A stretch of DNA of 64,000 bases, from assembly GCA_008690995.1 (NCBI GenBank), contig VRMN01000004.1, positions 868,001-932,000 on the forward strand, in the 5' to 3' direction. Below, piece after piece: positions 19,601-59,193 of this stretch. The translations under genes and the position numbers were made by a program. The first letter of the stretch is position 1. Each line of letters starts with the position of its first letter. The notes below the pieces were generated by a model. The model was not told where the DNA came from. It was given only the letters and a program-made list of their open reading frames with translations, and ran no database searches. Origin of the DNA: Porphyridium purpureum. Taxonomy: Eukaryota.

Positions 19601-19979
19601 CTGGGCCTAGCACACGCAAATAAGTAGCCGGATTCATTGTGCCTGCGCCCACCTCGGTATTGTACGGCTGCCAGATCAAGCAATTCTGCTCAGCCCAGTA
19701 CCTTTGCAGCCGCAGGATTGCGTCCTGAAATGTGACGACCTCGTCCACCGTCTCGACGCTCGGCGTCGCCGGTGCCACGCTGGGCGCTGACTCTGCATGC
19801 TCGACGCTCATCATCCTCAACGCGCATCCACGCATCGCACGCACGTTTGCTCTACCCGCATCGCAGCACACACGCGTCGGCCCCACGCGCGATGCAGACG
19901 CAGCCGACGACACAAACAGCGGCCGCATGGCCGCGAAGCACAGGAGGTGTTGCTTGTGATGCTCATACCGTAACGCCAT
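16674..19979 (-). CDS. glyQS: Organellar glycyl-tRNA synthetase, fused alpha-beta (bacterial type)
   Basis: Alpha motifs [37 protein letters not shown]; beta motifs [24 protein letters not shown]; frame open to 20135, true start uncertain. Confidence 0.95.
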
Positions 19980-20197
19980 CTTCAGCTCGCGCGCGCCACA
20001 GCGCTGTGCACCACGCCACGATCTCAGTGCCCCGCCTTCGGCTCTCCGGCGTTCCACACCCGCTTCCAGCAGCGTTTCCGTCTCTTCCTTCCCTCTGTCT
20101 CTCTCTCTCCTCTCTCTCCATCCACCGTCCATCACATACCATCCGGCAGCTCAACTCAATTGTCCCGCAACGCGCCGACGAGATCGAGGGAAACCGG

Positions 20198-31607: not shown

Positions 31608-33308
31608 TCAAGCAAGCTTAAGGGCCGAAGCTTGTGCGAGAATGGCCGTAAATGCCGCCGGACGTTCGCGCTCGAGCAGCATTCCAAGGAGCGACCAGCC
31701 CAGACGAAAAGCTACGCGCTCGACAAGCAGCAAAGCATGCGCTAGGCCAGGGAGAAGTACATCCGTGTAGCAGGAGAACACAACCTGGTTGACAACGATA
31801 CTGCCGTGGCGCGTGTGCGGGTTGTACAAACCTTTCACGAAGCCCGACGGCTGTTCCACCGTCTCAACGCGGAGCCAGCCGTGCGATACGTGTGCCAGCA
31901 AATCCCCATGGCGAACTACGCCGGCTCTTCGCAAACCTTGCTGGGTGGGCACCAGATGCCCAGTGGAAACCGTGATCGCGATTCCACCCTCCAGCTGCAA
32001 GCGAACGAAGCGCTCAGCTGGTACGGCCTGCGGACTCTTGTGCCCCCAAAACACAACCTCGCTGAATTCATTGGCCGATACACGGACACGTGCACCGATC
32101 TGAAGCTCGTCCATGCGCACAAGGCGGCCGTCTTCAAGCTCAACAACGGCATCCGCTGGAAAGCAGGTAGCCTCCGGTTCCGGTATTGGCGTAGGAGAAG
32201 ATGTCGGTGCCGCAGTCGATGTAGGCGTTGAAGAAGTCTGCGACTCCATCCCGTGACCACAGTGGTTGGCCTCGCAGATACGACCCCGATCCTCTAGCCC
32301 TTGCGATGCGAGAAATGCACGCATATAAGTCACTTGCATGTTCTGCGTATTAATAATGTTCCAGAGCAGGTCCACAAATTCTTCGTCAAGTTGTCCAGGC
32401 GCGGCCAAATTGAGAAGCGACTTGGCCATGTTGACTGCATTGAGATGATGCGGAATCATTTGGTCCACAAAAGTAACTCGCTCGTCAGCGCTAATATCTA
32501 CCTGCATTTCCTCGTGCATTGCGCAGTCGAGCGCATTCATGCACTCTCCGAAGACACTGCCGTTCAAATTGCAGAGGAACGTGCGCGTGCCGCATGTGTC
32601 TTGGAAAGGCGCCACGCGGAACGTTCCACACGTCTGATCGAAGGAATCGAGCTCGGCATAATTGTATCCCAAAGGCGGAAGGTCTGCATCTGGCTGTCGC
32701 AGCACATTGTCGTCTGCAATCTTGACGCGAAGACTCATGAAGTCGTGGATGTGACAGAATATGAAGATATCCTCCACAGCGGTTTGCGTCACGTTCAAGC
32801 AGACTTCAAAGTTGCCCCGCTCGGCCCACATCATACGTGGCAGCATGAACGCTGGCTCGTAAACATCAAGCCCAAAGTCCAACACATCCTCCTCGCTGCC
32901 CAGAAACTGGCCGTTCAGAAAATATAAAGGTCGCTGACACGAACTCGTCTCCACACAACTTTCGTCATATGGGTTCACTTCCGGCTCAAGCTCTGGATTC
33001 TCCTTGAGGGCGCCATCAGGAAGGTACCCAAAGCCCAGCGGGTGCATCCAGTTTGAGATATCGTATTGGCGGAAGCAATACATGGTGTTGGCATTCACAA
33101 GCAACGTCGGCTGTACACCTTCGCAGCCGTCGACTGTGAAGTAGCCCGTTTCGCTTGCAAAGGGATTGACCTTGAAGTCAAAGACGCACGTGCCATTCTG
33201 CTCAAAGCAGCTGGCGCGGCACAGTCCGTCTTCATCCGTCGACGCCGCGCTTGCGAGCACGGCCACGTTGAGAATCAGCACAAGCGCAGCAACAATACTT
33301 GCTCCCAT
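31608..33308 (-). CDS. Secreted cupredoxin-like + DUF305/CopM-like + Hint-domain protein
   Basis: Signal peptide; NWMHPLGF and FCHIHDFM (C-x2-H-x2-M); FVDQMIPHHLNAVNMAK; PST linker; CFPA...STGH...GLYNPHT.HGSIVVN.VV.SCY. Confidence 0.85.
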   Translation of the reverse strand: MGASIVAALVLILNVAVLASAASTDEDGLCRASCFEQNGTCVFDFKVNPFASETGYFTVDGCEGVQPTLLVNANTMYCFRQYDISNWMHPLGFGYLPDGALKENPELEPEVNPYDESCVETSSCQRPLYFLNGQFLGSEEDVLDFGLDVYEPAFMLPRMMWAERGNFEVCLNVTQTAVEDIFIFCHIHDFMSLRVKIADDNVLRQPDADLPPLGYNYAELDSFDQTCGTFRVAPFQDTCGTRTFLCNLNGSVFGECMNALDCAMHEEMQVDISADERVTFVDQMIPHHLNAVNMAKSLLNLAAPGQLDEEFVDLLWNIINTQNMQVTYMRAFLASQGLEDRGRICEANHCGHGMESQTSSTPTSTAAPTSSPTPIPEPEATCFPADAVVELEDGRLVRMDELQIGARVRVSANEFSEVVFWGHKSPQAVPAERFVRLQLEGGIAITVSTGHLVPTQQGLRRAGVVRHGDLLAHVSHGWLRVETVEQPSGFVKGLYNPHTRHGSIVVNQVVFSCYTDVLLPGLAHALLLVERVAFRLGWSLLGMLLERERPAAFTAILAQASALKLA

Positions 33309-34098: not shown

Positions 34099-35967
34099 CT
34101 AGTCACAACGTGGTTGCGTTGGCGACGAAGGAACAGGATGAAAGTATCGTGTTTGAGATTCTCGAGTTGGATCACGAGCTCGCATTTCGTAGAGTTGCTG
34201 AGACACAGAACAGCGGTACTGGATGTGACCATTGGAAGCGATGGGAACCAGGCGATATCCTTCTTTGCTGACGAATGCATGGACTCGAGCTGGGTTTCCC
34301 CACACCATTTCGTATGCGCCCACGTCCTTGGTGACAACTGCTCCGGCGCCGACAAAACTGAATTCGTGTAGTGTCACGCCGCATACAATCGTGGCATTGG
34401 CGCCAACAGTTACACCGCGCTCCACGCGCGTAGTCACGAACTCGCCTTTTCGCACAATCGCACTGCGCGGGTTCCGGATGTTGGTGAATACCATCGACGG
34501 CCCCAGAAAGACATCATCACCAAGCACCACGCCGTCGTAGATGCTAACATTGTTCTGCACCTTCACTCCGTTGCCAATCTCGCACTGTCCGATAAATACA
34601 TTTTGGCCAAAGCTGCAGTTGCGACCGATCCGTGCAGCAGACATCACATGGCAAAAATGCCAAATTTTAGTCCCAGCACCAATGTGCGCACCCGAGTCAA
34701 CAACGGCAGACTCGTGCTGAAAGTATGCATCTGTCTTTGGCGCGCGCGGCATTGTAGCCATGCTTAAAAGCCGCTCCCGCTCTTGCTCTGAAGTAAGACA
34801 ACGTGCCTTGGCTCCATTCAAAATTCGCAACACATGGAATCCTTGGAGGCCATCTGTCTGCACCATTGCACCACTTCGAATACACTCTTCAAAGTGCAGA
34901 TGCTCCAGCGATAAAGGGTCCGACCAGCCCGACTTGTCAACGTTTGCCAACAAATCCTGCACGGCGCCGCTGCCCGCGTGATCTGATGGAGCGCCTTGGT
35001 CGACCAACCGCACCGTGCCGTCATGCTCCACCACGGGTGCCGTCGAAAAGTATTGTACGTGCTTGCTTGTGTCTGGATGCAGCGCATCATAAACTAAAGT
35101 ACCTCTCTCGCCAGATACAACGAACTGCCGCTGTTTGAAAGGATGAATCCAGCTGATCACAACGTGGGCGTCGATACCCAAGTCATCATTGCGGAGCGTC
35201 AGGCTGGCAAAGTCTGGCTGGACAAATCCTGTTGTTCGGCACTCGGAGGCCGAAATCACGTTGAATTCTGATGCGCGTGTGTGGCTAGTAGCATCGTGCG
35301 GGCCTGAACTCGTTTGGGACGCGACATGGAGAATCATGGCAATGTCATGCGACGCCAGACTGGACGCAACCGATTCCTCAGGTCTGAATCGGCCTAGGCT
35401 CAAGCGTGTCGCATACATGTGCCGCACACGGCCAATTCTGCCTTGTTTGATGGCACGCAACATCACTTGGAACTCGGGATCATAAATCACAAGGTGTCCA
35501 ACCATTAGCACGCGCCTGTTCGCCGAGGCCACCTCAATTAGCTTTAGAGCATGATGCTCTTCCAGGCAGATCGGCTTTTCCACCAGCACATGCTTTCCGC
35601 GCTCCAAGCAAATTCTCGCGACCTCAAAATGCTTGTGCGACGGCACCGCTACCACCACAGCACTAACGCGCGGGTCGGCAAGCGCTTCCTCCAGATCATG
35701 TGTCAAGACTACGCCGGACGCATCCCAAGAGCGAGCAAAGACAGACGCATATCCAGCTTTCTGAGAGTCGAATCCAACCAGCGAGTCACGCAAAGTGTCA
35801 AGCGCCGCCGCACTTTCGTCCACGACGCTTGCCAGTGCGCCGCGTTCGTACAAGCGTAACGTGTGGTTCCTGCCCCAGTTTCCAGCGCCTACGAGCGCAA
35901 ACGCAAGCGATTTCTCATCGTCGCATTGCTGCAAATCGTCGCTCTTCCCAGCAGCCGACGTCGTCAT
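34099..35967 (-). CDS. Fusion of Gfo/Idh/MocA dehydrogenase (WbpB/WlbA-like) and hexapeptide-repeat N-acetyltransferase (WbpD/WlbB-like)
   Basis: GAGNWG.NH, GKHVLVEKP, LMVGH, LASHD; then GTKIWHFCHV, CSFGQNVFI, VKVQNNVSIYDGV, VFLGPSMVFTN..NPRS, GNPAR. Confidence 0.9.
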   Translation of the reverse strand: MTTSAAGKSDDLQQCDDEKSLAFALVGAGNWGRNHTLRLYERGALASVVDESAAALDTLRDSLVGFDSQKAGYASVFARSWDASGVVLTHDLEEALADPRVSAVVVAVPSHKHFEVARICLERGKHVLVEKPICLEEHHALKLIEVASANRRVLMVGHLVIYDPEFQVMLRAIKQGRIGRVRHMYATRLSLGRFRPEESVASSLASHDIAMILHVASQTSSGPHDATSHTRASEFNVISASECRTTGFVQPDFASLTLRNDDLGIDAHVVISWIHPFKQRQFVVSGERGTLVYDALHPDTSKHVQYFSTAPVVEHDGTVRLVDQGAPSDHAGSGAVQDLLANVDKSGWSDPLSLEHLHFEECIRSGAMVQTDGLQGFHVLRILNGAKARCLTSEQERERLLSMATMPRAPKTDAYFQHESAVVDSGAHIGAGTKIWHFCHVMSAARIGRNCSFGQNVFIGQCEIGNGVKVQNNVSIYDGVVLGDDVFLGPSMVFTNIRNPRSAIVRKGEFVTTRVERGVTVGANATIVCGVTLHEFSFVGAGAVVTKDVGAYEMVWGNPARVHAFVSKEGYRLVPIASNGHIQYRCSVSQQLYEMRARDPTRESQTRYFHPVPSSPTQPRCD

Positions 35968-36113
35968 CGCTATCGCTGTGGGCACCCGCGCCGCCACGCA
36001 CCTCGAGTGGCATGTGACGGATGCCTCTCAAACCCTTTCGCTGTCGTGACGAACGCTCCGAACAACGTTGCGAAAGTTATGCGCAGGTGATCTCCTATCC
36101 GGCTTGAAACAGG

Positions 36114-37404: not shown

Positions 37405-37987
37405 TCTCGCCGTAGCCGTCGTCGTCGCTTTCTTCACATGTGCAAATGCAATTCCGCGACGGTTCGGACTTTGCGAAGCGGAATGAGCAGGTCATCGGAT
37501 TGAGACCACTAAAATTTCTCGGGGCTGAAGAGTTTGTAGGCAACGGTTTGCAAGAGGCGGTTGCAAAGGGTCTCGGACGAGGCGTCGGACGCCAGCGAAT
37601 GAGCGAGTTGTGGCGAGGATGCAACGCAGTCACACGAAATCTGCAAAAATGCAACTATCACCAGTGAACTACGAGCAGGCTTCTCTCTTCGCGCTGCTCG
37701 TTCGCGTCGACTAGAGTCGCGAGAAAGCGACAGGTGTGAAATTACTTGCGCGCACTTGTCTTCTTCGTGAAGCGCGGGAAGAAGAGTTGGCAGCGAGGCT
37801 GTCATTCGAGGAGGTACATACGCTTTCTCGCGAAAACAGAGGAAAAGCTGTAAAAGAATCATCAGAATAGACCTTTTTTATTTCTCCTTCCGCACCAACT
37901 CTTACATCCAACCCAAGAATACCGAACAAAACCAATTCCTCGAATAATTGGCGGTCACGAGCGACGCAGGGTTGCAAAACCGAACGC

Positions 37988-38228
37988 TGTTATGCTGTGT
38001 GCGCGAGCTAGGTGAACCGTATCCAGCCAATACTAGTCAGAGACGTGACAGCATGGGAGAATCGTACAAGCATGACATCTCAGAAACGTCTGCGGCGGCT
38101 GCGATAGTTCAAGTTAGGCGAAGAGTGTTTGTCGTGAGTGGTAATAAAGGTTGGAGCGTCGACACGCGGGTGAAGAGTCGATTGCCGAGGGGACCTACCG
38201 GGTGCGTTAGAGTCACGGCTCTATAACA
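37988..38228 (+). repeat. Copia 5' LTR
   Basis: Direct repeat of 43227-43467; AATAAA at 38143. Confidence 0.97.
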
Positions 38229-38346
38229 CAAACACTTTCAACTCCTCCGAGGCGCGAAGGAGCGTGGAGTAAAGCACAACGCGTATTTGGGGGTCCGTTG
38301 TGGGACTAAAAGCTCAGACGCGTGGTGGTAGGAGAGGCCAACAAGG

Positions 38347-39444
38347 ATGGCCAGTCGAGCGAACAAGGGGAAGGAGACTTATCCGCGCAAGGGAGTCGTG
38401 GAGTCCCTCCCGATCCTAGAGTTTAATGCTGCCCATATGCGACCGGCCTATGAAGTTGTGGCATGGTTGCGGGCACTGGAGCATTATACTAAAGCAGAAT
38501 TTGGATCAATCGGAGCCATATTCGAAATGGATCAGGCACGAGCGCGTTATCCAAGCGGGCCGGGCATTCCGGCGGCGCAAGAGCCTGAGAATTGGCGAGA
38601 GAGGGAGTTTGCAAGATTGCAAATCCAAGCGTATGCCGAGTGGCACAAGCACACGACGCTTGTGCGGGAGAAGATATGTGGCTTGATTGTTGGGCAGCTG
38701 TCGCGCACTTCTCTGGATGTGCTGGAGACGATGAGCGCGTGGAAAGACCTGACTGCAGCCGGAAACGATCCACTAGAAATGAAGAAACTGATAGTGGTCA
38801 TGCACATGACACCTGTGGGAGCGAGCGACATGAAGCGCAAGACGTTCGCGCGTGCTCGCTTCCAGGAAACTGCCATGGAGAACGGTGAAACTATCGAACA
38901 ATTTCGGGAGCGTTTCTCTGCCGCTGTCATGGTGATGGCTCTTGTACAAGAAGCGGGAATGGAGGAAGAGCGCATTGCTGAAGAGTTTCTTCAAAACGTA
39001 GCTGTCGGGAAGTATGAAGAAGCGGTACGTAACGCTGCCAACACTGGTAGAGCTCTTGCGACTGTCAATGAGGTAGTTCAGTACCTTCAGACTTACCATT
39101 ATGCAACGAACACAAGCAGTAAGACCTTTGCAATACGCGCACAGAGCTCAAGCATTTCGCAGGATACACCCGTCGTGAAGCCGTGTGGCATTTGCAAGAA
39201 GAAAGGACATTACGCTCGTACGTGTCCTCTCAAGACCAAAGACAAAGGCACAAATGATTCGAAGCTCGTTCTGGAGCTGAGGAAGGAAATAGAGAGCCTG
39301 AAGGCCGAAATGGAAAAAATGGCCACCAAATCCGAGGCTTCAGGGCAGCGTCCGCGTGAAGGGCACACAAAGTTCGCTGACTGGGCCAAACATCGTGGAG
39401 ATGACGAATCGCGTGAGAGCTCAGGCACGGACTCAGAAGAGTGA
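38347..39444 (+). CDS. gag: Copia Gag
   Basis: ME.GETIEQFRERF segment; knuckle CGICKKKGHYARTC; ends at TGA in frame with pol. Confidence 0.9.
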   Translation: MASRANKGKETYPRKGVVESLPILEFNAAHMRPAYEVVAWLRALEHYTKAEFGSIGAIFEMDQARARYPSGPGIPAAQEPENWREREFARLQIQAYAEWHKHTTLVREKICGLIVGQLSRTSLDVLETMSAWKDLTAAGNDPLEMKKLIVVMHMTPVGASDMKRKTFARARFQETAMENGETIEQFRERFSAAVMVMALVQEAGMEEERIAEEFLQNVAVGKYEEAVRNAANTGRALATVNEVVQYLQTYHYATNTSSKTFAIRAQSSSISQDTPVVKPCGICKKKGHYARTCPLKTKDKGTNDSKLVLELRKEIESLKAEMEKMATKSEASGQRPREGHTKFADWAKHRGDDESRESSGTDSEE

Positions 39445-42400
39445 GGATGCGACTTGGAGCGTACGGTTCGCGTGGCTCTCCGGGCGATCAGCACAGAAGC
39501 ACAGTCGATCGGGATCGACACGATGTCCAGCGAGCATGTTTTTGCATCTCGTGCATTGCTGACGAGCATAAGAAAAACCAAAGATGTTATTTTGTTGTCC
39601 GGTATTGAGCGGGGGACGGACGGTGTTTTGATAGATGAAGTGGGAGAGACAATCTTCGGTACGGTGTATTATTCGGACAAAGTGGCAGGAAACGTTCTGT
39701 CCTTTAGCCGTTTACTGGAGTCTGGGCGCCCAGTGCGGTACTCAGTTGAGGAGGATGCGTTCTTTATTGGCACTGGAGCGCGAGGAAACGCGCCCGCGGA
39801 AGTCGGCTTCTATCGAAAGGCTCGCCTCTATGTATCAAAGTTTGATGCCAAGGAGAAGCGTTTGACGTACTCCGCGACTGCTCGTTCATACTCACCGCAG
39901 CAGGTCCCCAACGCAACCAGTGAGCCTGTACAGACCGAAGACAGTTTCACAAAACGAGAAATTAAGCGTGCTGCTGAGGCCATGGAGCTGCAACGGTGCT
40001 TGGGATATCCGTCGATTGATGTTGTGAAAACCATGCTAAGGCGAGGAGACATTGAGCATTGTGACTTCACAGTGGCTGACATCGACAGGGCAGTGTGCAT
40101 TTGGGGTAAGGATGTCTCGAGGATCAAAGGGAAGACAACGGGTCACAAGACGCCTGTGGTACGTATCGTACCGCAACGCACAGAATCCGTTGCGCAGGAG
40201 ATGCACTGTGACCTTATGTTTCTAGAAGGCTACACATTTGTCATCACCGTTGTCAAGCCGATGCATTTCATTATCACCACGATGGCAAAAGGCAAAACAG
40301 CGAAAGACATGAGTGCCGCAATGAAAAAGCAAGTTGCATTCTTGAAGGCACACAGGATAGACGTAAGGGCCGTCAAGACTGACCCCGAGTCGGGACTTTT
40401 AGCAATAGTCGAAGAATTGAGCGAAACAGGCATTTTGCTGAACCAGACCGCGAGCGCTGAGGCGGTCCCTGCGGTGGAAAGAGCGATAAGGACGGTGAAA
40501 GAGATCGCCCGCTCGACATTGTATTCCTTGCCATTTGCGTTGCCAAAGGAGCTTCTGCCTCAACTAGTTCAGTACAGCACTCACAGGTGCAATATTGTCC
40601 CTGGGACAACTGGATGGCATGACGCCGAAACACCTATGTCACGCATGACAGGTGTCAAGGCGAGCATGAAGAGAGACTTGGCTCTCAAGTTTGGCGATTA
40701 CGTACAGGCAGAGAGCGCGAAAGTGGATAATTCACTGAAAGCGCGCACTGTCGGGTGCATTGCATTGTACCCAGTTGGAAACGTGGAAGGCAGTTGGGTT
40801 TTACTCAACTTAAACAGTATGCGTGAGACAAGAAGGCAGCGGTGGCAGAAAGTGAGTATTCCTGAAGAGGTGATATCATACTTGAATGGTTTCAAGGGAA
40901 CTATATCTTTGCTACGTGACAATGAAGCTGATGCCCTGACGGACAGCGAGAACGAAATCGAAACCGCAAGCGCTCAAGAATATCCAAGGTCGCAGGGAGC
41001 ACTGAATATGTCACATACTGGTCCAATAAGTGGAACAGGAGAGCAGCTCGGCGGAGAACAGAGCGCAGCTTCAACAGGACCCGAATCTCAGCATGCTGAG
41101 ACACCACGACATGCAGTTCAAGCCGGGAGTGACAGAGAAACAAGCTGTTTACCGGCAGAAGCAGGGAGTGGCGAGGGCATGCTAGCACTGCCTCTACAAG
41201 TGGGAAGTGCGGAAAACGTTGCAGTTCCTCCAATGGAGCAAGACACAGAAACTACAGGCGGGACTAGGGATGTTCAAGTGCAACCCAGGCCCAGAGAAGG
41301 CATGTGCGATGAGATGAATCCGGTTGATTCCTGCAATGATCAAGACCTGGGCGACATTAAACTAGGCAATATGTCGGTCTCGGACGTCCCAGTACGGTCA
41401 AATGGCACAATGGACAGTGCACTTATTATCAGAGATATAACGTCAAGATTACCGCCAGTGCCTTCGCGCGGTGCGAAACGAGCACGATTCGTACAAAGCT
41501 GTGATGACACTGGCATTCGCTCATCAAAGAAAAGGCGAACCTTCAGAGCAATGTGGAGACTTGTAAAAAAGTCTAAGTGTTTAAGCGCGATAGTTCGGAA
41601 GGCATATACGGAGTACGGAACATCTGGACTTCGTGCAGTTATCAATGAGCTGATGCAGATGTCTGCTTGGGATAAAGATGTGCTAGAACCGATAACAAGA
41701 AAGCTAACAGACGACGAAAAGCGCAGTCTTTTACCTACACACATGATACTTGATGAGAAAAGGAATCCGCAGACAAACGAAGTCGTAAAGATCAAGGCAA
41801 GGCTAGTCGCAGGAGGGCACAGACAAGAGCGGGAACTGTTCCCTGATTCAGCATCACCGACGGTCAGTACAGAAGCGCTACTATCGTTGGCAGCTTTAGC
41901 CGCGCACGAGCGACGCAAGGTTGCGACTATAGACTTTCCTGGAGCGTACCTAAATGTAAGTATGCCAAAAGAAGGACCACAGGTTTTCGTTCGTCTTGAC
42001 AGGGAACTATCCAGCGTGATGGTGGAGATAGACCCGGAACTGGAGCAAGCTGTTGGACAAAGTGGAACAATAATTTGTCGGCTAAAGAAAGCCATGTACG
42101 GATGTATTACATCAGCGAAGCTGTGGTACAATCACTTGGTCAAAGATCTGCAGGATATTGGTTTCATGGTGTGCGTGAACGATCCCTGTGTTCTTAAGCG
42201 AGCAGAAGACGACATGTGGTTGGTGGTGCATGTCGATGACATCAAACTTTTTGCAAAGAATTGTGAGGACATAGCACGTTTGAGCAGCGAGTTGAAAGCG
42301 AGATACCAAGGACTGAAGGTGTGCATCAACCAGACTGTGGAATACCTGGGCCTCGTTTTTCGGTATGATGACATGGGACACGTTGAAGTTAGTATGCCGG

Positions 42401-43200
42401 CCTTTACGGATCGCTTATTGTCAGAAGCGAATGTAACGGGGAGTGCCAAGACACCGGCAACTGATAATTTGTTTGATGTACATGCAAACAGTCAGTCATT
42501 GTCCCAAAAAGAGAAAGCCACCTTTCACACTCTTGTCGCAAAATTGCTTTATCTCGCCAAAAGAATACGACCAGAATTGCTCTTGGTCACATCTCACTTA
42601 ACGAGGCGAGTGATTGCACCAAACGCAGACGACCAAGCAAAGTGGAATCGCGCTTTAAAGTACTTGGCAAGGACCACAGAGCAGGTGCTCAGACTTGGCG
42701 TGAAAACATGTCCAGAAGGTCATGTAGAAGTATCAATCTTTGTTGACGCAGCGTTTGGCGTGCATAGTGACATGCACAGCCATACCGGTTGCGTGGTTTC
42801 TCTTGGCCGTGGGGCGGTATATGCAAAGAGCAGTCGCCATACATTGGTCACTAAAAGCTCGACCGAGGCGGAACTCGTCGGTGTCAGTGATATGATGGGG
42901 CAAAGTATATGGATAGCGGCTCTCCTGACAGAGCTGGATGTGGATGTCAAACGGAAAGTCCTTTACCAAGATAACGAAGCAACGATGGCACTCATCCGGA
43001 ATGGAAGGCCTAACTCGTTTCGAACGAGGCACATCGCGTTGCGATATTTCTTCACGAGTGACCGCATTTCACGAGGGGAGCTCGACCTGAAGCATTGCCC
43101 GACGGAACTTATGTGGGCCGATATACTCACAAAGCCAGTACAAGGTCAACTGTTTCAGAAGCTTCGAGCGTGGATGCTGGGGGCCGAGGAGTCGCCATGA
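39445..43200 (+). CDS. pol: Copia Pol (PR-IN-RT-RNase H), same frame as gag
   Basis: IDTMSSEH; CDLMF..TDPE..VERAIRTVKE; KARLVAGG, DFPGAYL, KAMYG, HVDD; FVDAAFGVH, SSTEAE, QDN, ADILTKP. Confidence 0.95.
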   Translation, partial: GCDLERTVRVALRAISTEAQSIGIDTMSSEHVFASRALLTSIRKTKDVILLSGIERGTDGVLIDEVGETIFGTVYYSDKVAGNVLSFSRLLESGRPVRYSVEEDAFFIGTGARGNAPAEVGFYRKARLYVSKFDAKEKRLTYSATARSYSPQQVPNATSEPVQTEDSFTKREIKRAAEAMELQRCLGYPSIDVVKTMLRRGDIEHCDFTVADIDRAVCIWGKDVSRIKGKTTGHKTPVVRIVPQRTESVAQEMHCDLMFLEGYTFVITVVKPMHFIITTMAKGKTAKDMSAAMKKQVAFLKAHRIDVRAVKTDPESGLLAIVEELSETGILLNQTASAEAVPAVERAIRTVKEIARSTLYSLPFALPKELLPQLVQYSTHRCNIVPGTTGWHDAETPMSRMTGVKASMKRDLALKFGDYVQAESAKVDNSLKARTVGCIALYPVGNVEGSWVLLNLNSMRETRRQRWQKVSIPEEVISYLNGFKGTISLLRDNEADALTDSENEIETASAQEYPRSQGALNMSHTGPISGTGEQLGGEQSAASTGPESQHAETPRHAVQAGSDRETSCLPAEAGSGEGMLALPLQVGSAENVAVPPMEQDTETTGGTRDVQVQPRPREGMCDEMNPVDSCNDQDLGDIKLGNMSVSDVPVRSNGTMDSALIIRDITSRLPPVPSRGAKRARFVQSCDDTGIRSSKKRRTFRAMWRLVKKSKCLSAIVRKAYTEYGTSGLRAVINELMQMSAWDKDVLEPITRKLTDDEKRSLLPTHMILDEKRNPQTNEVVKIKARLVAGGHRQERELFPDSASPTVSTEALLSLAALAAHERRKVATIDFPGAYLNVSMPKEGPQVFVRLDRELSSVMVEIDPELEQAVGQSGTIICRLKKAMYGCITSAKLWYNHLVKDLQDIGFMVCVNDPCVLKRAEDDMWLVVHVDDIKLFAKNCEDIARLSSELKARYQGLKVCINQTVEYLGLVFRYDDMGHVEVSMPAFTDRLLSEANVTGSAKTPATDNLFDVHANSQSLSQKEKATFHTLVAKLLYLAKRIRPELLLVTSHLTRRVIAPNADDQAKWNRALKYLARTTEQVLRLGVKTCPEGHVEVSIFVDAAFGVHSDMHSHTGCVVSLGRGAVYAKSSRHTLVTKSSTEAELVGVSDMMGQSIWIAALLTELDVDVKRKVLYQDNEATMALIRNGRPNSFRTRHIALRYFFTSDRISRGELDLKHCPTELMWADILTKPVQGQLFQKLRAWMLGAEESP

Positions 43201-43226
43201 GCGATGCATGATGACGATTGGGAGTG

Positions 43227-43467
43227 TGTTATGCTGTGTGCGCGAGCTAGGTGAACCGTATCCAGCCAATACTAGTCAGAGACGTGACAGCATGGGAGAA
43301 TCGTACAAGCATGACATCTCAGAAACGTCTGCGGCGGCTGAGATAGTTTAAGTTAGGCGAAGAGTGTTTGTCGTGAGTGGTAATAAAGGTTGGAGCGCCG
43401 ACACGCGGGTGAAGAGTCGATTGCCGAGGGGACCTACCGGATGCGTTAGAGTCACGGCTCTATAACA
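43227..43467 (+). repeat. Copia 3' LTR, preceded by short purine-rich tract GGGAGTG
   Basis: Direct repeat of 37988-38228. Confidence 0.97.
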
Positions 43468-43984
43468 AACGCACACCCTTGTTCTGGATCCCTACCAATT
43501 TTCCGAAACTCTAGCTTTGAACAGAGCCGAAAGAGAAAGAGAGCGAGGTCAATTTGCAATATGATACCGCAGTCTTCCTTCACTTGGTTCCAACAAAAAC
43601 AAAAGTGTAGGACAGTGCGAAGGACCTGCAAACCTTTTCCTCATGTAGACGACTGGAGTCGTGCTTCCGGATTCGGAAGTCCCGGAGCACCCTGAAGACG
43701 CCAACTCTGACGAGTTGGAAGATTTGCTTACAATGTATCTCCGAACGGAATCCAGTCTCCCTTTCGTTTCCTTTTTCGGGTTCCTACGTTTTTCTTTTCC
43801 GGTGAATATGTGCACACCGCGAGTTTTTCCAATGCTTGCACGAGCTTCTTCTTTACTGTGTGCCTTCCCGTCTTGCCTGGCGGTGCGGCTACATAAGCGC
43901 ATGAGCCAGTACCATTGTCTAGAACTCTCTTTGCCTCCCTATTTCAGCCAAGGGGAGTATTCAAAGAGCATAGAACACGTATAT

Positions 43985-44088: not shown

Positions 44089-47000
44089 TTGCCTTAGTTG
44101 TCCACCTTTTGTAACCCCTTGTGGACGACTTCTACGGTCTTTTTTTTCTTTTTCTTTTTCTTTCTTTTTTGTGCACATGTACTTTGTGCCGGCTTGAATT
44201 GGCGCACCAACGTGCCCGTGACGGACTGTTAGGCCGTTGAACCGCTGAACCTTTACCATCTTTTGTGTCCTGTGACAGTCTTCCGCTTACCAAATGTCGC
44301 ATTCTTCCGTCACGAGCAAACTAGCGCCTACTGCCTTTTTCAGTATCAAGATGACGAAAAGGTACCACAAGCAGAATCCTTACAACGCTACAAGCGCTCA
44401 GACTCGCTCGGTTATGAGCCCAGCATTTGGCTACGCAATGGAAACAATGAACCGAGACCCGCTCTCCCCTCCGCCAACAGATAGTACCCGCGACCTGTCT
44501 GGATGGCGTCGGGCCGTCGCACAGTGGAACGAATTGCATAATTTGGCCATGAATTCGACAAATGCTCAGCGCCGCAAAACAGCGCTTCCGCAAGAAGAAT
44601 GAGCATCCCATCAGCAAATGGTGCGTATCGGCTTGGCGCATGGGCTCGCTGACAACCTGTCTCTTGGCCAGCTCCAGTAAGGTTCTGGCCTTCAACTGCT
44701 GATGGGCATGTTTGATCCGCCAAACAAACTTAGTTGTGCCTTAATTCGTGCCCGTCTTATGTCTGACTTATTTCGCCTGTACCGCAATCGTAATGAAGCA
44801 TTGCTACCTTTCAAATACCTCTTTGACGCCTAGAACCAGCAAATGGGGCGCGAAGGCATCAATTTGACACCCCTGGACGAGCTGCTTGGCCTCAGACTGT
44901 TGGACGCTGCCAACTTGAAACCTGAGGAAAGCAACACCATTCTTTTCACAGCCATGCAAGCGTGTGGAGATACGGATTCTGCTCGCACATTGAAAGCAAT
45001 GCAGATCACCTTGCTCTCTACGCGAGATACATCCCAGAACTCTGTATCCTGCACGACGGAGAGTAAGGGGCCAAGCCCCGCTTGCAAGTAGGCTTACCAT
45101 TGGTCTTTGCGCCACCGAAAGCGTCCGAAAAACCGAAAAGACAATGCGTCAAGAAAGGAAAACAGACCACAGGATCCGGTCGAGTCAACGCAAGCAAAGA
45201 CCACCAATGGTTTGTCGTCTGGCACATTGTCCACGACCGCCAGCAAGTTGCTCACGAGCAATCTATCGAACGTGACCTTTGCGTACGCAGCCAGACCGCA
45301 TGCACTCAGTCATACTCACGCCTTGGTTAGCACTGGCGCAGCAAAGAGCATCATTGGCTACATGCAAGCAGCGAAGATTGGAGCCACAATCCTCGAGCTT
45401 CGAGAGAATGGTCCCCAGCTGCACCGTTTTGGCTCTGGCACGGCAGCTGGTGCTTTTACCAAGATTATCGAACGAGCATGGGTTCTCGTGACCGGTACAA
45501 TCGATATGGAGTTCTTCATCATTGAAGGCTTATCACCATGCATTATCGGCAATGATGTTCTTCAGGACGCTCGCATTCAGAATCAGACGATTCTGGTGGA
45601 AGACGAGTCTATTCCTACACTCACAATTGGTGACTTGCAGTATATCAACATTACCCACGCGGCACAGCATGCAGTCAGCAGTACGACCCAGGCTCTTCTG
45701 GATCCCGCTGATGCCGTCCGTCGTTTACATGCCCGTACTCATCATCGTGTGGCAGACATTGAGACTATTCTTCTCCGTGCCGGCGAAATCAGTTCACCTC
45801 TCCAGCCAGAGCTCCGGGAGCTGCTCGAGAAGGAAGTCGAACACTGCAATTCCTGTTTTCGGACGGTATTGCCTCAGCCGAACCGCAAGGCAAGCTTCTC
45901 CCCTGTTGCCGCTCATTTCGGCGAGCGTGTGTCGATGGATGTTGTCTTCTTGAAGTGTGTTTCGCACTCTAAGCCGGTTCTTCACCTTATCGACGATGCT
46001 ACGGCCTACAGCGAGGTCTACCCGCTCAAGTCGCTGCACGACTCTTCCATTATGCATGGCATCGCACTTGCATGGATCGACAGACATGGACCTCCTGCCA
46101 TCCTCAAAGCAGACGCAGCATTCGCGGGGCGAAAAGTACAGGCGTATGCTACGGCTTCCGACATCCAGCTAGCCATTTTGCCATCTCGCCGCCATCAGAA
46201 GATGGGCATTGTCGAGCGAAAGAATCGCGAAATCAGAAAGCATTTTCATCGCCTGCAAGAAAGTGTGCCGTCTTCTCGACGAGAAGCGGACTTCGTTGCG
46301 CACGTCGTTAGAGCTGCTTTTGTCAGCAACATTGCAAACGGACCCGTGTTGCCTCGAGTTTTGAAATGGCGCGAGGATATACTCCAGTAATTGGTACCGA
46401 CGGACTATACCCTCCACTACAGCCGGAGCTGCGACGACGCGAGCAGCGCCGTCAGGCTCGCCGACGTCTAGCCGCTATCACCCGCACGCAACCATTGAAC
46501 CATGAGGACGCACTCTCGCTCACACCCGGCGAACAGGTGTACGTGTATATCAACGACAAAGGCAAGGCTAAGACGCCAAGCGCTTGGCGTAGAGCCAGTG
46601 TTGAGGCCGCCGACGGTACTGGCGTGCATGTCCTCGACCACGGCAACCGTCGCTTTGTTGCGCTTGAGGACGTCGAAAAAGCGCCAATGTTTCAACCATT
46701 CGTTGGTCGAGAATACAGAGACTCTAGCGACACAGATGACCGCACAACCAATGATCAATCTTCGGACAGCAGCGACTCCGAGTCACTCGACGACCAAAAC
46801 CAGAATAACCATGAAATAGACCTGCTTGCCGCTCGGTACAACACGACCGACTTTCGGTTGCTCTCACCGCGTGGAACGAAACGAACAACGATTGACTATC
46901 CTGATGCTCCGGAGCCGTCACCATCTAACGATGATGTTCGACGCAGCGTGCGCGCCCGGCGTCCTACCCAACGCCTTATCGAAAGCATGATGGCTCCTTC

Positions 47001-48235
47001 TCATCCGGAGCTCTCTCGTTTGCTCATGCTGTTTGGCAACAAAACGTTTGGCCAAAACGCCGCTCTGAACTCCGGGTGTTCACCTGCGCTTTTCGAAGCC
47101 GCGCTGAAAACGGAAATGAGCAAATGGGAAAATCAGTATACCGTGTATTCGCGCAAGGAAGTTCCTGTTACGGCAAACATAATCGGCAGTCATGTACTGT
47201 ATCAAGTCAAGGACACCGATCCCGTTGACGACAATGCCGCCGAGCTGAAGTTGAAGGCAAGACTATGCCTGTGGGGGCACAAAAATCAGGAAAAAGACTC
47301 CATCCGGGGCGACGCTCCAACCCCTCCGCTCGTCGCAATTCGTTTGGTCCTGGCCTTGGCGGCCGCTTTTCCAGCTTTAACTCTTGCTAAGATAGATGTC
47401 ACTGGGGCCTACCTGCAGAGCGGACCAATGGACCGGACAGTCTTCGTTCGACCTCCGCAGCATTTGAGCCAAGGAGATGTTTTGTGGAAACTCACCGCAA
47501 AGCCCTATGGCCTTAAAGATGCTGGGCGACAATGGCTTCTTCGCAGTGACGCAGAAATTCGAAGCCTTGGACTGGTGCAGTCCAAGCTTCTTCCGCAAAT
47601 CTTTTTCGGAAAAGTACTGGTAGTCAAATATGTTGATGACTTGCTTGTTCTCGGCGAGGAGGATGATGCTGAGAGTTTCCTGACCCGGTTTGCAGAGCGA
47701 TTTCGCTCGTCTCCTCCTGTGACTAATCGCTTCTCTTACATTGGCTGTGAAGTGTCACGCAGCAACCAAGGGGTATCTATTGACATGACTCGCTATCTGG
47801 AAAAGATTCAGAGTGTGTCGGTACAACGCAGACAGGATACAGTGCCCCCTTCCGCCATGCAGCTCAGTCAGAAACTCGCCGGGTCAATCAACTGGCTTGG
47901 TCTAACGGTCTCCCCTTTCGCATGTTTTACCGCATCGTACATCCAGCAACAGTTGCCTTATCGGTACAAATACTTCGAGATATCAGTGGAATTGCGAAGG
48001 AGTTGATGCGTACGCCAGCCAAACTTTTGTACAAGGAATCATTCAGTTTCGCAACAGCACACATCCTCGTTTACTCGGATGCAGGCTTCCCATTTGGAAA
48101 GAACGTGGTGTATACGGAAGCAGCCTGAGTCCTGCCGTTGGCTGACGAGCAGAACCATGCTCTCCTCCTCGATTGGGAGAGTAGCAAATCTAAGAGGGTA
48201 ATCTGCAGCCCTCTCCACGCTGAGGTGCGTGTCTT
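43985..48235 (+). mobile_element. Degenerate Copia (GalEa-like), cut within RNase H by a Gypsy LTR
   Basis: Stops and frameshifts (about 44600, 46370, 47970, 48120); PR VSTGAAKSIIG; IN SMDVV, LIDDAT, WIDRHGPP, GIVERKN; RT LKARL, DVTGAYLQS, YGLKDAGRQW, YVDDLL; RH VYSDAGF and DWESSKSKRVICSPLHAE. Confidence 0.85.
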
Positions 48236-48531
48236 TGTTACCAATGCTGTGCCTTTTTACTCTCTCTCTCTCTCTGCCTTTTCTGTCTCCGAGCAAGACC
48301 TGACCGGCTAGTCCGGGCAGGCGCGCCGCCTTTTTATACCCTTACTTCCGCCAGGGACAGCAAGGTGCCAAGAGAAATGACAATGCAAATCATTGGCATT
48401 TCTGTGCAAGTCTAGAAGGTTTTGGAACCTCTAGAAGCTTCTAGAAACGGTTAAACGGTCTACCGGTTTAACGGCTTACCGGTTTCGGATTAACTGAACC
48501 GTTCTAGGTCACTGGGGTCGAACGGATAACA
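48236..48531 (-). repeat. Solo Gypsy LTR (LTR-A, 296 bp) with non-matching flanks
   Basis: Homologous to 54022-54322 and 59194-59474; TGTTA...TAACA; flanks GTCTT / CTTAA. Confidence 0.95.
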
Positions 48532-50525
48532 CTTAATATGACGAAGGCTGTGCTTCAACGGTGCGGACGATACTTTGTGCGGTGCATGACACGACGATAG
48601 CATCACTTCTAGTCAGACGACACAGCAAAGCAGAAATTGTGCATTACAAGCATCGCGAATTCTGCAAACTTTCTAAGAGCTTGCACTCTACTAAGTTTGC
48701 ATCGAAGGAGGTTATATTTTTGTTCTTGATCGCTATTGCGAATTTTCTCGTCAATGTGGAATACGGAGAGCAGTTGGCGACTTCATTTGAAGTTGTCCGA
48801 GGATTTGCGCTACTATCGCGCTAATTCTCTCAACTGACAACCAATACACGCGCTCCTGAAAAGGCACGTCGGAACAAGCAAGCAGTCAAAGGTGTTGCTG
48901 GTAACCCGTCTGAGAAACCAACAGCTATAGGAGCTGGGTACACGCTCAATCAGGATGCACCACTTCTGAAATACGGCTCACTGCTTACACCGTAAGTCAG
49001 CCTTGTGCGGCTCATTCCGTTCTATTCGCGCATGCATTCGCCTATATAAGGGTGCCCCGTGACAGAAATCTTCTTTTCTTCGCTCTTCTAGTCCTCTTCC
49101 CCCTTAAGGGGAGTCACAGTAAAAAGAAACATATCGAGTTGGCAAAGAACAAGCGTCTGGATTTTACGATATGGAAACAGCCAAAAAAGGCACACTGAGG
49201 TCTGGACGTGTCGAATTGAATGTTGATATTTTGAATCGCTAGCTAGGAGATACCGCTCGTGCTTGCGTCAAGGAATCCGCACTTGTGCGAGGCATGTCAC
49301 AAACTTGCCTCATCAAATCTCTTGACGGTGCGAGATCTACCTTTGTGAATCCCAATACCAGGAAACTTCGATTCGCTACCATTGCAGGCCTCCGCGTCGA
49401 CTCTCACGCCAATTCTTCCACCATCGAAAGTGACTATAAAAATGATCATGACGAAATGATCAGGTAGATCAGGAAGAGGAGATGAATTCCAACATGGTTG
49501 AAAGTAAAATCAAATTCAACGGCCGCGAGAAAATTGAATCCAACGAAAGTGACACTTATTCCCTGAGAGATCACAAAAAACTAAGAAATGAGAACCATGG
49601 AGATTGAGTGATTGAAGCTGGCCAGAGCCTCATGGCTTAACTTGATTGCGACTCGGTTCGCAATCTGGATCTTCAAAATCTGAGTCTGAGCCTGAGCACA
49701 CTTCTCCACATTGCGAGAAAAAGGAAGCAAGGAGAGAACTGCCGGAAACGAAAATATCGCAAAAACGACAACGGTGACGTATGCATCTGTATTTTCGCAG
49801 AGTCCGTAGGAATGTAGTTGTGCTGGTAGATCTCGTCTTCTTGGAAGTTTGCGCTTCTGCTCTCATAGACTAATTGAGATGATAATCGCAATATAAATGC
49901 GATCTGATATTGCCAAATCACACAGCATCCATCGCGAACTTCCCTTTTTATGCCACTCAGCAATTAATTCTGGGATTGAACCAAGTATCACACAGAAAGC
50001 ACTTCATGCAGAACTCGATGAGTAGCGGAATGGCCCGTATGATGAAGTCTCACGTCTCAATTCCTGCGAGATCAAATAATATGGGATGACACATGGTGTA
50101 GAAAATGAATTTTGAAACTCAACAAGTGCTGAAACTTCAAGCTGGGCCGGTGTCGAAAAGTAACCGTGGCAAAGACAAACAGTGGCTGTTGAGAGATGCT
50201 TTCGCTCCACGGATAGCCGCATTGCGCCTCGTCTGCATGACCCCACCAATTCATAAGTACTTAATTTACAAAATTGACCTACGAGAAACTTAATTGAAAT
50301 GTGGCCGCAAGGACCGAGACATGTATGTGCGACCGCGTCCTAAAACATCAGGTTGAAATACTGTGCAAACTGCATGCAAAAACTCACAGTCACATTGGCA
50401 CAGGAAGACACTGGCTCTTTGCCGGCGAAGAAGATTTGGTAGAAATGGGATTGCAGCGACTGTCGCGAGCGACCTGATGCAGGTCTCAGTACAGCGAGTA
50501 CGCAGAGGTACAGTCCCAAAGTGTA
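48532..50525. repeat. 2.0-kb duplicated non-coding segment, copy 1
   Basis: Colinear with 59475-61468 at constant offset 10943; about 15 substitutions seen by eye. Confidence 0.97.
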
Positions 50526-53988: not shown

Positions 53989-54021
53989 CGGGTCCGACGC
54001 GGCCGTCTCGTCACGGCGCAA

Positions 54022-54322
54022 TGTTACCAATGCTGTGCCTTTTTTTACTCTCTGCGTCTTCTTCTTACCTCTTCTCTCTCCGAGCAAGACCTGACCGGCT
54101 AGTCCGGGCAGGCGCGTCGCCTTTTTATACCCTTACTTCCGCCAGGGACAGCAAGGCGCCAAGAGAAATGACAATGCAAACCATTGGCATTTCTGCGCGC
54201 GTCTAGAAGGTTCTGGAACCTCTAGAAGCTTCTAGAAACGGTTAAACGGTCTACCGGTTTAACGGCTTACCGGTTTCGGATTAACCGAACCGTTCTAGGT
54301 GACTGGGGTCGAACGGATAACA
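54022..54322 (-). repeat. Gypsy 3' LTR (LTR-B, 301 bp)
   Basis: Adjacent to PPT; TATA-like GGGTATAAAAA on minus strand at 54132-54122. Confidence 0.97.
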
Positions 54323-54336
54323 TCTCCCCCCCTCTT
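54323..54336 (-). other. Polypurine tract AAGAGGGGGGGAGA
   Basis: Abuts the 3' LTR. Confidence 0.95.
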
Positions 54337-54441
54337 GGCTCGACGTCTCGGCGAGACTTCAAACTAAGTTGCATTCTTGGCTCGAGGAACCCGCGCTCCG
54401 GGAGAAAACCTCTGCCTAGCAAACTTCTCACAATACCCAAG

Positions 54442-57400
54442 TCATTCAGAGTCAGACTCTTCGATAATTTTCATCAAGTCTGGCTCAGAATCGGACGCCG
54501 GCATTTCGTCGGGTACTTCTTCATCATTTTCCCCTGCCATGTAGTCTTCGCGTCCATAGTATGGCTTCAGATGTTGGATCGGAAAAACATCATGACAAGC
54601 CACACCCTCAGGCAAAACCACTCGGTAAGCATGCGAGCTTACCTTCTCAATGACAGGCACCGGACCAAGAAACTTTGGTGCCTCCAAATCACTCTTGTTC
54701 GGCCGCAGTTGCGGCGCCGTGACCAACACTTGATCACCAACTTGAAACTCCCGGGCATCCTTGCGTCGATCGAAGAACTTCTGCATTCTCCACTGGGCTT
54801 CGATCAAATTGTCGCGGACTTCTTCATGGACTTTGCACAGGCGAAACCAGTGCTCCGCCATGTCCTTTGTCTGTCCGTCGCGCGCAGGCCTCCACCCTTC
54901 GCTCGGTGGAAACCAAGGATCCCTTCCATATACCACTTTGAACGGCACGAATCCAGTGGCACTGCTTGGTGCAGAGTTGTACGCAAACTCGTACAACGGC
55001 AAGTCTCGCACCCAGCCACTATTCGTCGCCATTAACTTGAGCATTTCCCGAATCACGCGGTTCACTCGCTCAGTTTGGCCATCTGTCTGCGGGTGGTTGG
55101 CGGTAGACATTGCCAACTTCATGCCCACCCGCTTGCTCAGCTGCTGCCAAAATGTTGACGTAAACAGCGGATCTCGGTCCGATACAATCGACTTGGGGTA
55201 TCCGAAGCGGCTCACGACGTGCTTCACGAACAAGTCAGCGCAACGCTTTGCTGTCAAGTCCTTGCGCGTCGGGATAAACAGCGCCATCTTCGAATAGCGA
55301 TCCACCACAGTCATGATTGCATCACAGCTGCCTTCGCTCCGAGGCAGCTCCGTCACGAAGTCCATCGAGATGTCGACCCAAGGTCCTTCTGGGATCGACA
55401 AGGGCTTCAGCTTTCCAAACGACCGATTCTCTGACTTTGTCACTTGGCATGCATGACAAGTCTTCACAAAACGGCTCACGTCTCGCTTCATCTTTGGCCA
55501 GTAGAAGCGAGTGATCAAAGATGCATACGTCGTGTCTGCCCCACGGTGTCCTGCTGTCGGGATATCGTGGTGGAGTTGCATGACACGCTCTCTGAACTTC
55601 CTCGGCACGCAAACGCGATTCCTCAAGTACAAGAGCCCAGCTTCGGTTCGAAAACCCTGGTGGGTCGGTAAATTACCCATCAAAGTACCAAAGTCTGGGT
55701 CACTCGAGTACGAACCCACGAATGCTTGGAAACTCGTACCAAATTCATCACATCGAACCTGGTACTCTAGCGCATGTAACTCTGGCTTCCTCGACAAAGC
55801 ATCGGCTACCACGTTCGACTTTCCCTTCACATAGTCGATTATGATATCAAACTCGGCTAAAAAGTCCAGCCACCGTGCTTGCCGGCCATTCAGCTCCTTC
55901 TGCGTCATCAAATGTTTCAACGCCTCATGATCTGTATGCAGCACAAACTTTGCTCCGTATAGATAAGGTCGAAACTCTCGCAGACAGTGAATGACGGCCA
56001 TGAGCTCACCTTCATAACTGCTGTACCTGGTCTCTCGGTCCAGCAGCTTCCTTGACGTAAACGCGACCGGTCTGCCTTCCTGTGCCAGCCATCCCCCCAC
56101 CGCGACTTCAGAGCGGTCCGTGTACACCTCAAATGGCTTTTCAGGGTCTGGCAAGGCCAACACCGGCGCTTCCGTCAACATCCCGACAATCTTCTTGAAG
56201 GCCGACTTGCCTTCATCTCCCAGTTCGATCAGCTGCTTCTTCGACTTTGCGTTCTGCAACAGCGAAGTCAGCGGCGCCACGACGGTAGAGTATCCTTTGA
56301 CAAACCTGCGAAACCAGTTTGTCATTCCCAAAAAGGATCTCAACTCCGTCACCGTCTTTGGCACGGGCCAATCTCTCAAAGCTTCCACCTTCCGTGGATC
56401 CATCTTCACGCAACCGTTTCCCACAATGTTCCCCAGGTATTCGACTTCAGAAACGAAGAAGCTGCACTTCTTGCGCTTCAAACGATACCCCGCCTTTTGC
56501 AAGCGCGACAACACTTCCTTCAGGACCTCAGCATGCGACTGCCTATCCTTGGTAAAGACCAAAATATCGTCCAAGTAGACAATGACGGTCTTGTCCAGCA
56601 GATCTGCAAACAGCTCGTTCATGGCCCTCTGAAATGTTGCCGGCGCGTTGCAAAGACCAAACGGCATCACATGGAACTCGAACTGTCCGTACCTGGTCTG
56701 GAACGCGGTCTTCGGCACGTCCTCTCTCCGAACACGCAACTGGTGGTATCCCGATGCCAAATCCAACTTTGAAAAACAATGAGCTGCGCCCAGTCGATCC
56801 AGCAACTCATCCATGTTTGGCAACGGATACCGGTCCTTCACAGTTGCGTCGTTCAACGCCCGATAATCGACGCACATCCTCATGCTGCCGTCTTTCTTCT
56901 TCACGAGCAGCACGGGTGCTCCAAACGGGCTCTGACTCGGCTGGACGAATCCTTTGTCCAGCAAGTCATCCAAAGTCTCTCGGAGGACTTTCAACTCCGC
57001 AGGGCTCAGTCGGTAGACCCTGCCCACTCTCACAGGCTTTTCATCTTTCAGCCTAATCACATGCTCCACTGTTCGGCTCTCAGGCAGCCCTCGCGGCTCC
57101 TCGAACAGATTTTCGAAATCATTGAGCATCTTCTTCACAGAGTCAGCTTCTTTGCGCTCCACTGAACAGGGCTCCTCCCTTCCTTTCAGCACGCCGAGGT
57201 AGCACTCTTCTACCTCCTGACTCTTCAACAGCCGACGGAGCTCTTTCCGCGGCACCAGCATCTGCGTCATGCTCCAGGCCCTCTTCTCTCCGTAGGCCAA
57301 CATGCCAGACTGCCAATCAATCACTGGGTTCTCCCGCTTCAGCCACTCCATGCCCAAGATTGCGTCTTGTCCCGCAATCCGGCAAATGGCAAAGTTAGCG

Positions 57401-57840: not shown

Positions 57841-58625
57841 GACTCCAGCGAGTCTCCCTCCAGCTGCTGGATAGTCTTCCTTGCCTCGGGACACTTCCTG
57901 GCGATGTGTCCCGGCCTTCCACAATTCCAGCATTTGAGCTCGGTACGAACACGCCTCTGACCCTGCACATGTCCCAGCTCCATCGGGACAGGTCCTTCCT
58001 GCGCTGCGCGACCGAAAAATGGCGTCCTCACACTTGAATCACGCACGCCGCGGGTCGCATGAATGGCGTCGTCCACGACCACCGCCACCTGCGCAGCCTC
58101 CGCGAACGTACTCACTCCTCGCTTGTACACTTCCAAGCGGACCTCGGGCTTCAGACCCCTCACAAAGCGGTCCATCATTTCTGCGTCCGACAAGTCCGGA
58201 ATCACGAGTGCCGCGTCCTGAAAAGCCGCCACATACGCATGGGCCGGGCCTTTCTGCGAAAGACGCGTCAACTTGTCCCTTGCACGCCTGATCGAATCCT
58301 GCGGCGTGAACCGAGCACTCACGAGGGCAGCAAAATCATTCCACGTCGTGGGGATCTCCTGCGGGTAGCGCTCGCAGTTCAGAACCCACCAATGAAGCGC
58401 CTCTCCCTCGAAGTAGTCTGATGCCAAGTCCACAGCACGCCTCTCCGCAAGCAGACGTTTCTCCAAATCGTCCGGGTGGATGCTCTCCAACAACCGGCCC
58501 AAGATCTTCTTTCTCGCCTGGAACAACCACGTCTTCACAACCAGAAGGTCCCTCTTCCCGTCGAACCTCATCAGACGGGCCTCCTTCGGGCCACGTGGTC
58601 CCAGCGTCTCCGAATCAATCTCCAT
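57819..58625 (-). CDS. gag: Gypsy Gag
   Basis: FDGKRD..VKTWL, GEALHWW, F.RGLKPEVR, GPVPMELG, knuckle CWNCGRPGHIARKC. Confidence 0.93.
   Translation of the reverse strand: MEIDSETLGPRGPKEARLMRFDGKRDLLVVKTWLFQARKKILGRLLESIHPDDLEKRLLAERRAVDLASDYFEGEALHWWVLNCERYPQEIPTTWNDFAALVSARFTPQDSIRRARDKLTRLSQKGPAHAYVAAFQDAALVIPDLSDAEMMDRFVRGLKPEVRLEVYKRGVSTFAEAAQVAVVVDDAIHATRGVRDSSVRTPFFGRAAQEGPVPMELGHVQGQRRVRTELKCWNCGRPGHIARKCPEARKTIQQLEGDSLESKNEELE
57834..57840 (-). promoter_or_regulatory. -1 ribosomal frameshift heptamer A AAA AAC
   Basis: In gag frame (TCA AAA AAC) four codons before the gag TAG; pol is in the -1 frame. Confidence 0.85.
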
Positions 58626-59191: not shown

Positions 59192-59193
59192 AA

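Follow-up and report, generated by a model that had tools for sequence, protein, structure and literature searches.

A Copia retrotransposon of Porphyridium purpureum predicted to prime reverse transcription with its own RNA

We propose that an intact Copia LTR retrotransposon of the red alga Porphyridium purpureum, found at 37988-43467 of the 64-kb window (the whole stretch of DNA that was analysed), is likely to prime its reverse transcription by Tf1-like self-priming. This mode of priming was put forward in the original prediction from the one copy, and it is now supported by pairing between primer site and LTR that recurs, in register at the edge of the LTR, in 28 of the 39 relatives that could be scored. 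As judged by comparison of the sequences, the pairing is lineage-wide and has been kept with changed letters. We regard the primer-site feature as real and very probably functional.

The element and its primer site

The element is flanked by a 5-bp target-site duplication, AACGC (left 37983..37987, right 43468-43472), and all of its parts lie on the plus strand. The 5' LTR (37988..38228; 241 bp, TGTTA...TAACA) shows 4 differences from the 3' LTR (43227..43467), in which the primer sequence recurs unchanged at 43361-43371. The gag gene (38347..39444) encodes 365 aa with a CCHC zinc knuckle and has an in-frame TGA at its end, and pol (39445..43200) follows in the same frame. The C-terminal half of pol matches Pfam RVT_2, the Copia RT (E = 1e-19), and the match of gag to the Pfam copia gag family is weak. 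The order within pol is PR-IN-RT-RH, the protease, integrase and RNase H regions being assigned by motifs and position; the integrase gave no Pfam match and was placed upstream of RT by its motifs. The polypurine tract ends in GGGAGTG (43220..43226), and relatives mostly have GGAGTG, GGGGTG or GGAGCG before the TGTT of the LTR. With 4 differences in 241 LTR positions, a target duplication and open frames, this is a young and intact element. The gag and pol protein clusters have representatives that carry the name Porphyridium purpureum and derive from a second, slightly different copy (97% identity in RT/RH). The single in-frame TGA that divides gag from pol (39442-39444) may be a site of programmed readthrough, as in Tj1. 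It falls within a stretch of ~46 residues that is missing from the sister family P0007, which has one frame of 1607 aa; the gag of the second copy (P0003) stops at the same place as that of the window, and most relatives have one open frame of more than 1000 codons upstream of RT.

The window holds several other features. A Ty3/gypsy element on the minus strand (54020-59474, LTRs of about 300 bp) has a conventional primer site, TT then TGGTATC..., and so offers a tRNA-type contrast to the Copia element. One of its LTRs is copied, with flank, in a 2.3-kb direct duplication (48236-50525 and 59194-61468, 98% identity). A second, broken Copia remnant at 45107-48006, which by its motifs we take to be possibly GalEa-like, has an RT just 23% identical to that of the element studied here. 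Three minus-strand genes were also recorded: a 566-aa ORF that combines DUF305 with a Hint domain at its C terminus (31608-33308), a fused alpha and beta bacterial-type glycyl-tRNA synthetase of 1153 aa (16674-20135), and a bacterial-looking fusion of a GFO/IDH/MocA oxidoreductase to a hexapeptide-repeat acyltransferase (34099-35997).

The putative primer-binding site, CAAACACTTTC (38229..38239, plus strand), stands directly after the terminal CA of the 5' LTR and is complementary to the element's own LTR. As the original prediction had it, TGG is absent from 38229-38237, meaning that no standard primer site for a tRNA 3' end follows the LTR. The predicted pairing was also exact: the LTR stretch at 38122-38132 (AGAGTGTTTGT) and 38228-38238 form an 11-bp duplex that includes a single G:U (G38123:U38237). 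Its Watson-Crick core comprises 9 pairs, 38124-38132 with 38228-38236, which the G:U and an A:U lengthen to 11; allowing one bulge brings in G38120:C38239 as well. The core forms with a pairing probability of 0.85-1.0 in folds that start anywhere from 37988 to 38123; a fold started at 38125 retains 8 pairs at 0.58-0.98. When the LTR was dinucleotide-shuffled 2000 times, a duplex as good was rare (p = 0.004 for 9 Watson-Crick pairs, 0.0005 for 11 with G:U), and the duplex energy of -12.3 kcal/mol compares with -7.6 +/- 1.5 for 1000 shuffles (p = 0.005). The host flank after the 3' LTR gave just 6 pairs.

The duplex is among the shortest of its lineage and is imperfect past 9 bp. A chance match, or a relic of the lineage's structure that no longer functions, would account for there being just nine Watson-Crick pairs, for the ordinary overall stability of the region 38120-38349 (z = -0.07), and for the up to 8 pairs that the primer site gets with unrelated LTRs; such an origin is nevertheless most improbable given the shuffling results (p = 0.004 to 0.0005), a register that is the same as in the relatives, including the TC after the primer, and a young, intact element with no other primer site. 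Among the variants listed for contigs of 5 runs, the primer site had no substitution or indel, and hence there is no compensatory change within the element's own family. One LTR variant in the RNA reads, T to A at primer base 38130, was seen without its own primer site.

Pairing across the lineage

An alignment of 30 RT/RH sequences was used as the query and led to 78 metagenomic loci (34-48% identity), which come from the best 80 of at least 575 confirmed stretches. An LTR-leader-ORF junction was present in 42 of the 78, and 39 of these had a candidate LTR end and were scorable; the 36 loci without an automatically detected junction and the 3 without a candidate LTR end were excluded before the count. 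In the 28 positive relatives (35-48% RT/RH identity), the primer site is joined to the LTR of the same element by 9-22 contiguous Watson-Crick pairs; LTRs that were shuffled and given the same treatment (best candidate end) average 4-7 pairs. Under an independent rule, by which the LTR end was set by the terminal inverted repeat alone in 31 full LTRs, the window included, at least 9 pairs were found in 22 of 31 and at least 12 in 17 of 31. The cross-pairing controls reached at least 9 pairs in 6 of 930 cases and at least 12 in 0 of 930, and displaced windows reached at least 9 in 1 of 31. A cruder rule that takes the last end before the ATG gave 17 positives in 31.

Offsets from -1 to +2 relative to the LTR end were allowed, and every duplex starts at 0 or -1. 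The primer-site 10-mers of the 29 positives, counting the window, are all different and none starts with TGG, and every primer-site position from 1 to 9 shows 2-4 Watson-Crick pair types across the positives. Loss of the pairing among copies would have spoken against the original prediction; among the relatives it is conserved in sequences that all differ. The compensatory changes that the prediction called for are thus seen across the lineage (28/39, with differing letters), but not within the contigs of the family itself.

These sites also bear on the possibility that priming at or near the site is due to a fragment of a host tRNA or to some other small RNA, and that the fold-back is a masking regulatory or packaging stem. 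This is an unlikely reading, since the 29 positives have 29 different sites, none of them TGG and each matching its own LTR only. On our reading of half-tRNA geometry, the complement of 38228-38245 also lacks the U and the purine that should flank the anticodon at the needed distance. Within the 64-kb window, the part of the host genome that was searched, there is no tRNA gene, and 37900-38450 gave no Rfam match. Half-tRNA priming does exist in Copia (Osser, Bryco and Bianca, as given in the available text of PMC6317226), but the same text describes tRNA sites as conserved within lineages, unlike the sites found here.

Self-priming from the RNA's first bases is favoured by a further landmark in the relatives. 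A TCA, which we take to resemble an initiator element, opens the paired stretch on its 5' side in 19 of 28 relatives against a background of 7.8% (p about 3e-15, with the relatives counted as if independent). From its position in these sequences, the initiator-like TCA suggests that the partner of the primer site is formed by the first bases of the RNA in the relatives. The primer also tends to be followed by TC (18 of 29 positives have the T and 20 the C), and the window element is in the same register.

The 11 first-pass negatives among the 39 were looked at post hoc: 4 proved positive once a mismatch or a changed LTR end was admitted, another 5 consisted of partial LTRs, one turned out to be a 3' LTR plus host flank, and L023 is without explanation. 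In a further post hoc pass, which took in 26 of the 36 excluded loci and allowed one mismatch, 13-17 paired bases were found in 7 (L021, L024, L025, L044, L056, L059 and L073), which are kept outside the headline counts. In the same pass L014 had 8 paired bases, and nine loci that presumably represent a 3' LTR with host DNA had 8 pairs or fewer (L002, L041, L043, L057, L058, L063, L064, L071 and L076). The self-duplex was not seen in L023 and L027. In or near the LTRs of these two and of L048 there is a GGTTCGA..CC-like motif and a common GAGCTAC...AAAAA.GCTC stem (around 300-420 in L023, at the 3' end of L027 and after the LTR start in L048); tRNA genes in these stretches were rejected by ARAGORN and Rfam. 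The diatom-like loci L032, L045, L060, L061 and L077 have an apparent short extra frame between primer site and gag. In viral contigs, 56 pattern matches included 0 relatives.

The relatives are non-independent samples, and their RT/RH tree comes from a quick IQ-TREE search without bootstrap in which the outgroup sits on a very long branch. In this tree the window element and three Porphyridium proteins form one clade (100% SH-aLRT), and weak support (87) places this clade beside L001 and L038, both positives. Pairing-positive elements, the window element among them, occur in most branches. Among those compared, the closest named proteins are from Porphyridium (45-97%) and then from diatoms (about 34%). 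Copia proteins of Nitzschia, Fragilaria and Chaetoceros have 34% identity to the window element and 59-61% to L061, the self-duplex of which is 15 bp, and the look-alike clusters of the Atlas are mostly Bacillariophyta. Plant names number 0 among the 120 best matches listed, most of which are unnamed. Since the nearest named relatives outside Porphyridium among those compared are diatom Copia elements, the window element may be called CoDi-like, at ~34% protein identity to diatom Copia, and is a candidate member of CoDi.

RNA ends, leader folds and the proposed mechanism

An AATAAA polyadenylation signal lies at 38143..38148 (plus strand) and works in the 3' LTR copy, at 43382-43387. A 73-nt contig of run X13, whose library type was guessed, runs from 38112 to 38162 and continues into 22 untemplated A, so that the poly(A) begins 14 nt past AATAAA. 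On this one contig, the likely R/U5 border is at 38162 (plus strand; 43401 in the 3' LTR), which puts the LTR partner of the primer site upstream of the border. The AATAAA had been expected to mark the start of R from its position 21 nt past 38122; the position is correct, but the signal marks the end of R. With poly(A) at ~38162, again from the single contig, the primer sequence precedes the 3' end of the RNA by 30-40 nt, which is compatible with a primer at the start of an R of roughly 40 nt.

No pile-up of starts was seen near 38122 among 55, 215 and 72 RNA reads from three runs, which mostly stem from LTR-only copies; the reads represent about 20-25% of each run, few cross the 5' junction and depth in the leader is about 2-4. 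A dip in depth at 38086-38116 was considered as a transcription start and rejected, the reads of a divergent LTR subfamily being clipped there. The TCA landmark is absent at the paired stretch of the window element. The step C38119-G38120 is the sole pyrimidine-purine step between 38117 and 38126, and the divergent subfamily is alignable from G38120 on, likewise after a pyrimidine. For these two reasons 38120 was picked as the start, a guess made from the letters.

The predicted self-primer would accordingly span 38120..38132 (plus strand), with an RNA start somewhere in 38120-38124 and a 3' end at G38131, the base that sits opposite the first base past the LTR. In the mechanism that we propose, transcription would start at about 38120-38124 and the first 8-12 nt of the RNA would fold onto 38229-38239. 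A nuclease, by analogy with Tf1 the RNase H of the element's RT, would then cut after G38131, and the freed 3'-OH would prime minus-strand DNA from the terminal A of the LTR. That would leave about 30 nt of R (38132-38162) to serve in the first strand transfer.

The partner of the primer site could instead be the 3' repeat copy (43361-43371) or the second RNA of a dimer, in which case the pairing would circularise or dimerise the genome RNA as well as supply the primer. The identical copy in the 3' LTR lies 30-40 nt before the poly(A) site and the conserved pairing fits either LTR copy alike, but the initiator-like TCA that opens the paired stretch in 19 of 28 relatives is predicted only by a model in which the RNA's 5' end takes part, and the intramolecular 5' fold-back is itself predicted at 0.85-1.0. 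The window element has no TCA landmark and its RNA start is a prediction, which leaves room for such a partner; we nevertheless think it improbable, if less so than the involvement of a tRNA fragment.

For self-priming by the 5' end, the structure around the duplex can be compared with the three-duplex "pretzel" of Tf1, in which a side duplex is needed. The central duplex of the window element is strong and its U5-side arm has a probability of about 0.47. This weak second arm (38134..38142, plus strand) is predicted to pair with the U5 end at 38215-38227 with a probability of about 0.45-0.5, and may possibly correspond to the side duplex of the Tf1 pretzel. The original prediction paired GUGAGU with GCUCUAU here. 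Its GAGU:GCUC portion stands, marginally (38136-39 with 38218-21), but GU (38134-35) pairs in another register, with AC at 38226-27; each of these helices has ~0.47, and G38134 and U38135 pair into 38218-24 with a probability of only 0.14. No third duplex to the LTR exceeded 0.25 in the pairing probabilities of the window leader, and an alternative side stem of CGUGA with UCACG was rejected at 0.02.

An ACTCC/GGAGT hairpin (38241-45 with 38266-70) had been suspected of competing with the primer duplex. It is present in the minimum-energy fold when the RNA ends at 38280, and when the whole leader is folded, a long stem that joins 38242-38286 to 38293-38334 supplants it. The primer site is clear of both hairpins, and therefore neither competes with the primer duplex. 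The long predicted stem-loop (38242..38334, plus strand) has z = -2.9 against 300 shuffles and most of its pairs exceed 0.9. Lying between primer site and gag, it is a possible packaging or translation signal, as far as the folding model goes.

Relation to known self-primed elements

In Tf1, the RNA's first 11 bases anneal to the primer site, and RNase H cleaves between bases 11 and 12 (PMC7175516, in the part available), and self-priming defines the Tf1/sushi group of Gypsy elements in the accessible text of PMC10085805 and PMC4600332. As these sources describe them, Tf1 and Tf2 of S. pombe, Tj1, Tosmo1-3 and Tf1/sushi elements have a site after the CA of the LTR, with ~11 nt of complementarity to their own LTR and no tRNA match; the window element is alike in the place of its site and in its complementarity, and lacks TGG. 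Tf1/sushi elements, however, are Ty3/gypsy chromoviruses with the order RT-RH-IN and a chromodomain, whereas the window element is a Copia with RVT_2 and no match to RVT_1 or a chromodomain. Cleavage by RNase H is experimental in Tf1 and a prediction for the window element.

The original prediction overrated the novelty of such priming for Copia. In the available text of PMC6317226, self-priming is predicted for 89% of 203 plant TAR Ty1/copia elements, and an earlier proposal for Houba and Osr-1 is cited there; as in the window element, the prediction for TAR (Houba, Osr-1) comes from LTR complementarity. TAR is a lineage of land plants, whereas the nearest named relatives of the window element are from Porphyridium and diatoms. 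Self-priming in the window element's lineage may have had an origin independent of TAR. CoDi elements (Copia of diatoms; Maumus et al. 2009, PMC2806351) have a related RT/RH and diatoms as hosts, against a red alga here; the main text of that paper, in the portion available, names neither tRNA nor Tf1 nor a primer-binding site.

The fungal GalEa elements belong to the same broad Copia branch and are likewise without a tRNA primer site. In the accessible part of PMC5445492, they have a palindromic Conserved Hairpin Site downstream of the LTR for which no LTR complement was found, whereas in the window element's lineage the site differs from family to family and has its partner in the LTR. GalEa-like elements are known from Porphyridium cruentum (PMC3587641, in part). 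We found no publication on self-priming in diatom or red-algal Copia in the open literature, with GyDB, Repbase and closed-access papers outside the scope and the term "CoDi" blurred by "coding". Self-priming in Copia is not a first; the red-algal branch is new, and the lineage is undescribed in print as far as we searched.

We lean, by a narrow measure, towards the view that a deep Copia lineage of diatoms, other aquatic microeukaryotes and red algae dropped tRNA priming throughout, independently of both Tf1/sushi and TAR. If true, self-priming would be either a solution that evolved three times or the surviving ancestral mode of LTR elements, which bears on the proposal, in the available text of PMC3601003, that among LTR elements self-priming by a hairpin is older than priming by tRNA. 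Annotation pipelines that demand a tRNA primer site would probably undercount the lineage. In the literature surveyed, experimental self-priming is confined to the Gypsy element Tf1, and in Copia it is a prediction (plant TAR). The combination of a young, intact element, a culturable red alga and far-reaching covariation makes it testable whether a Copia RT and RNase H can cut and use the element's own RNA, and on the deep-lineage view the intact Porphyridium element would be the first testable self-primed Copia.
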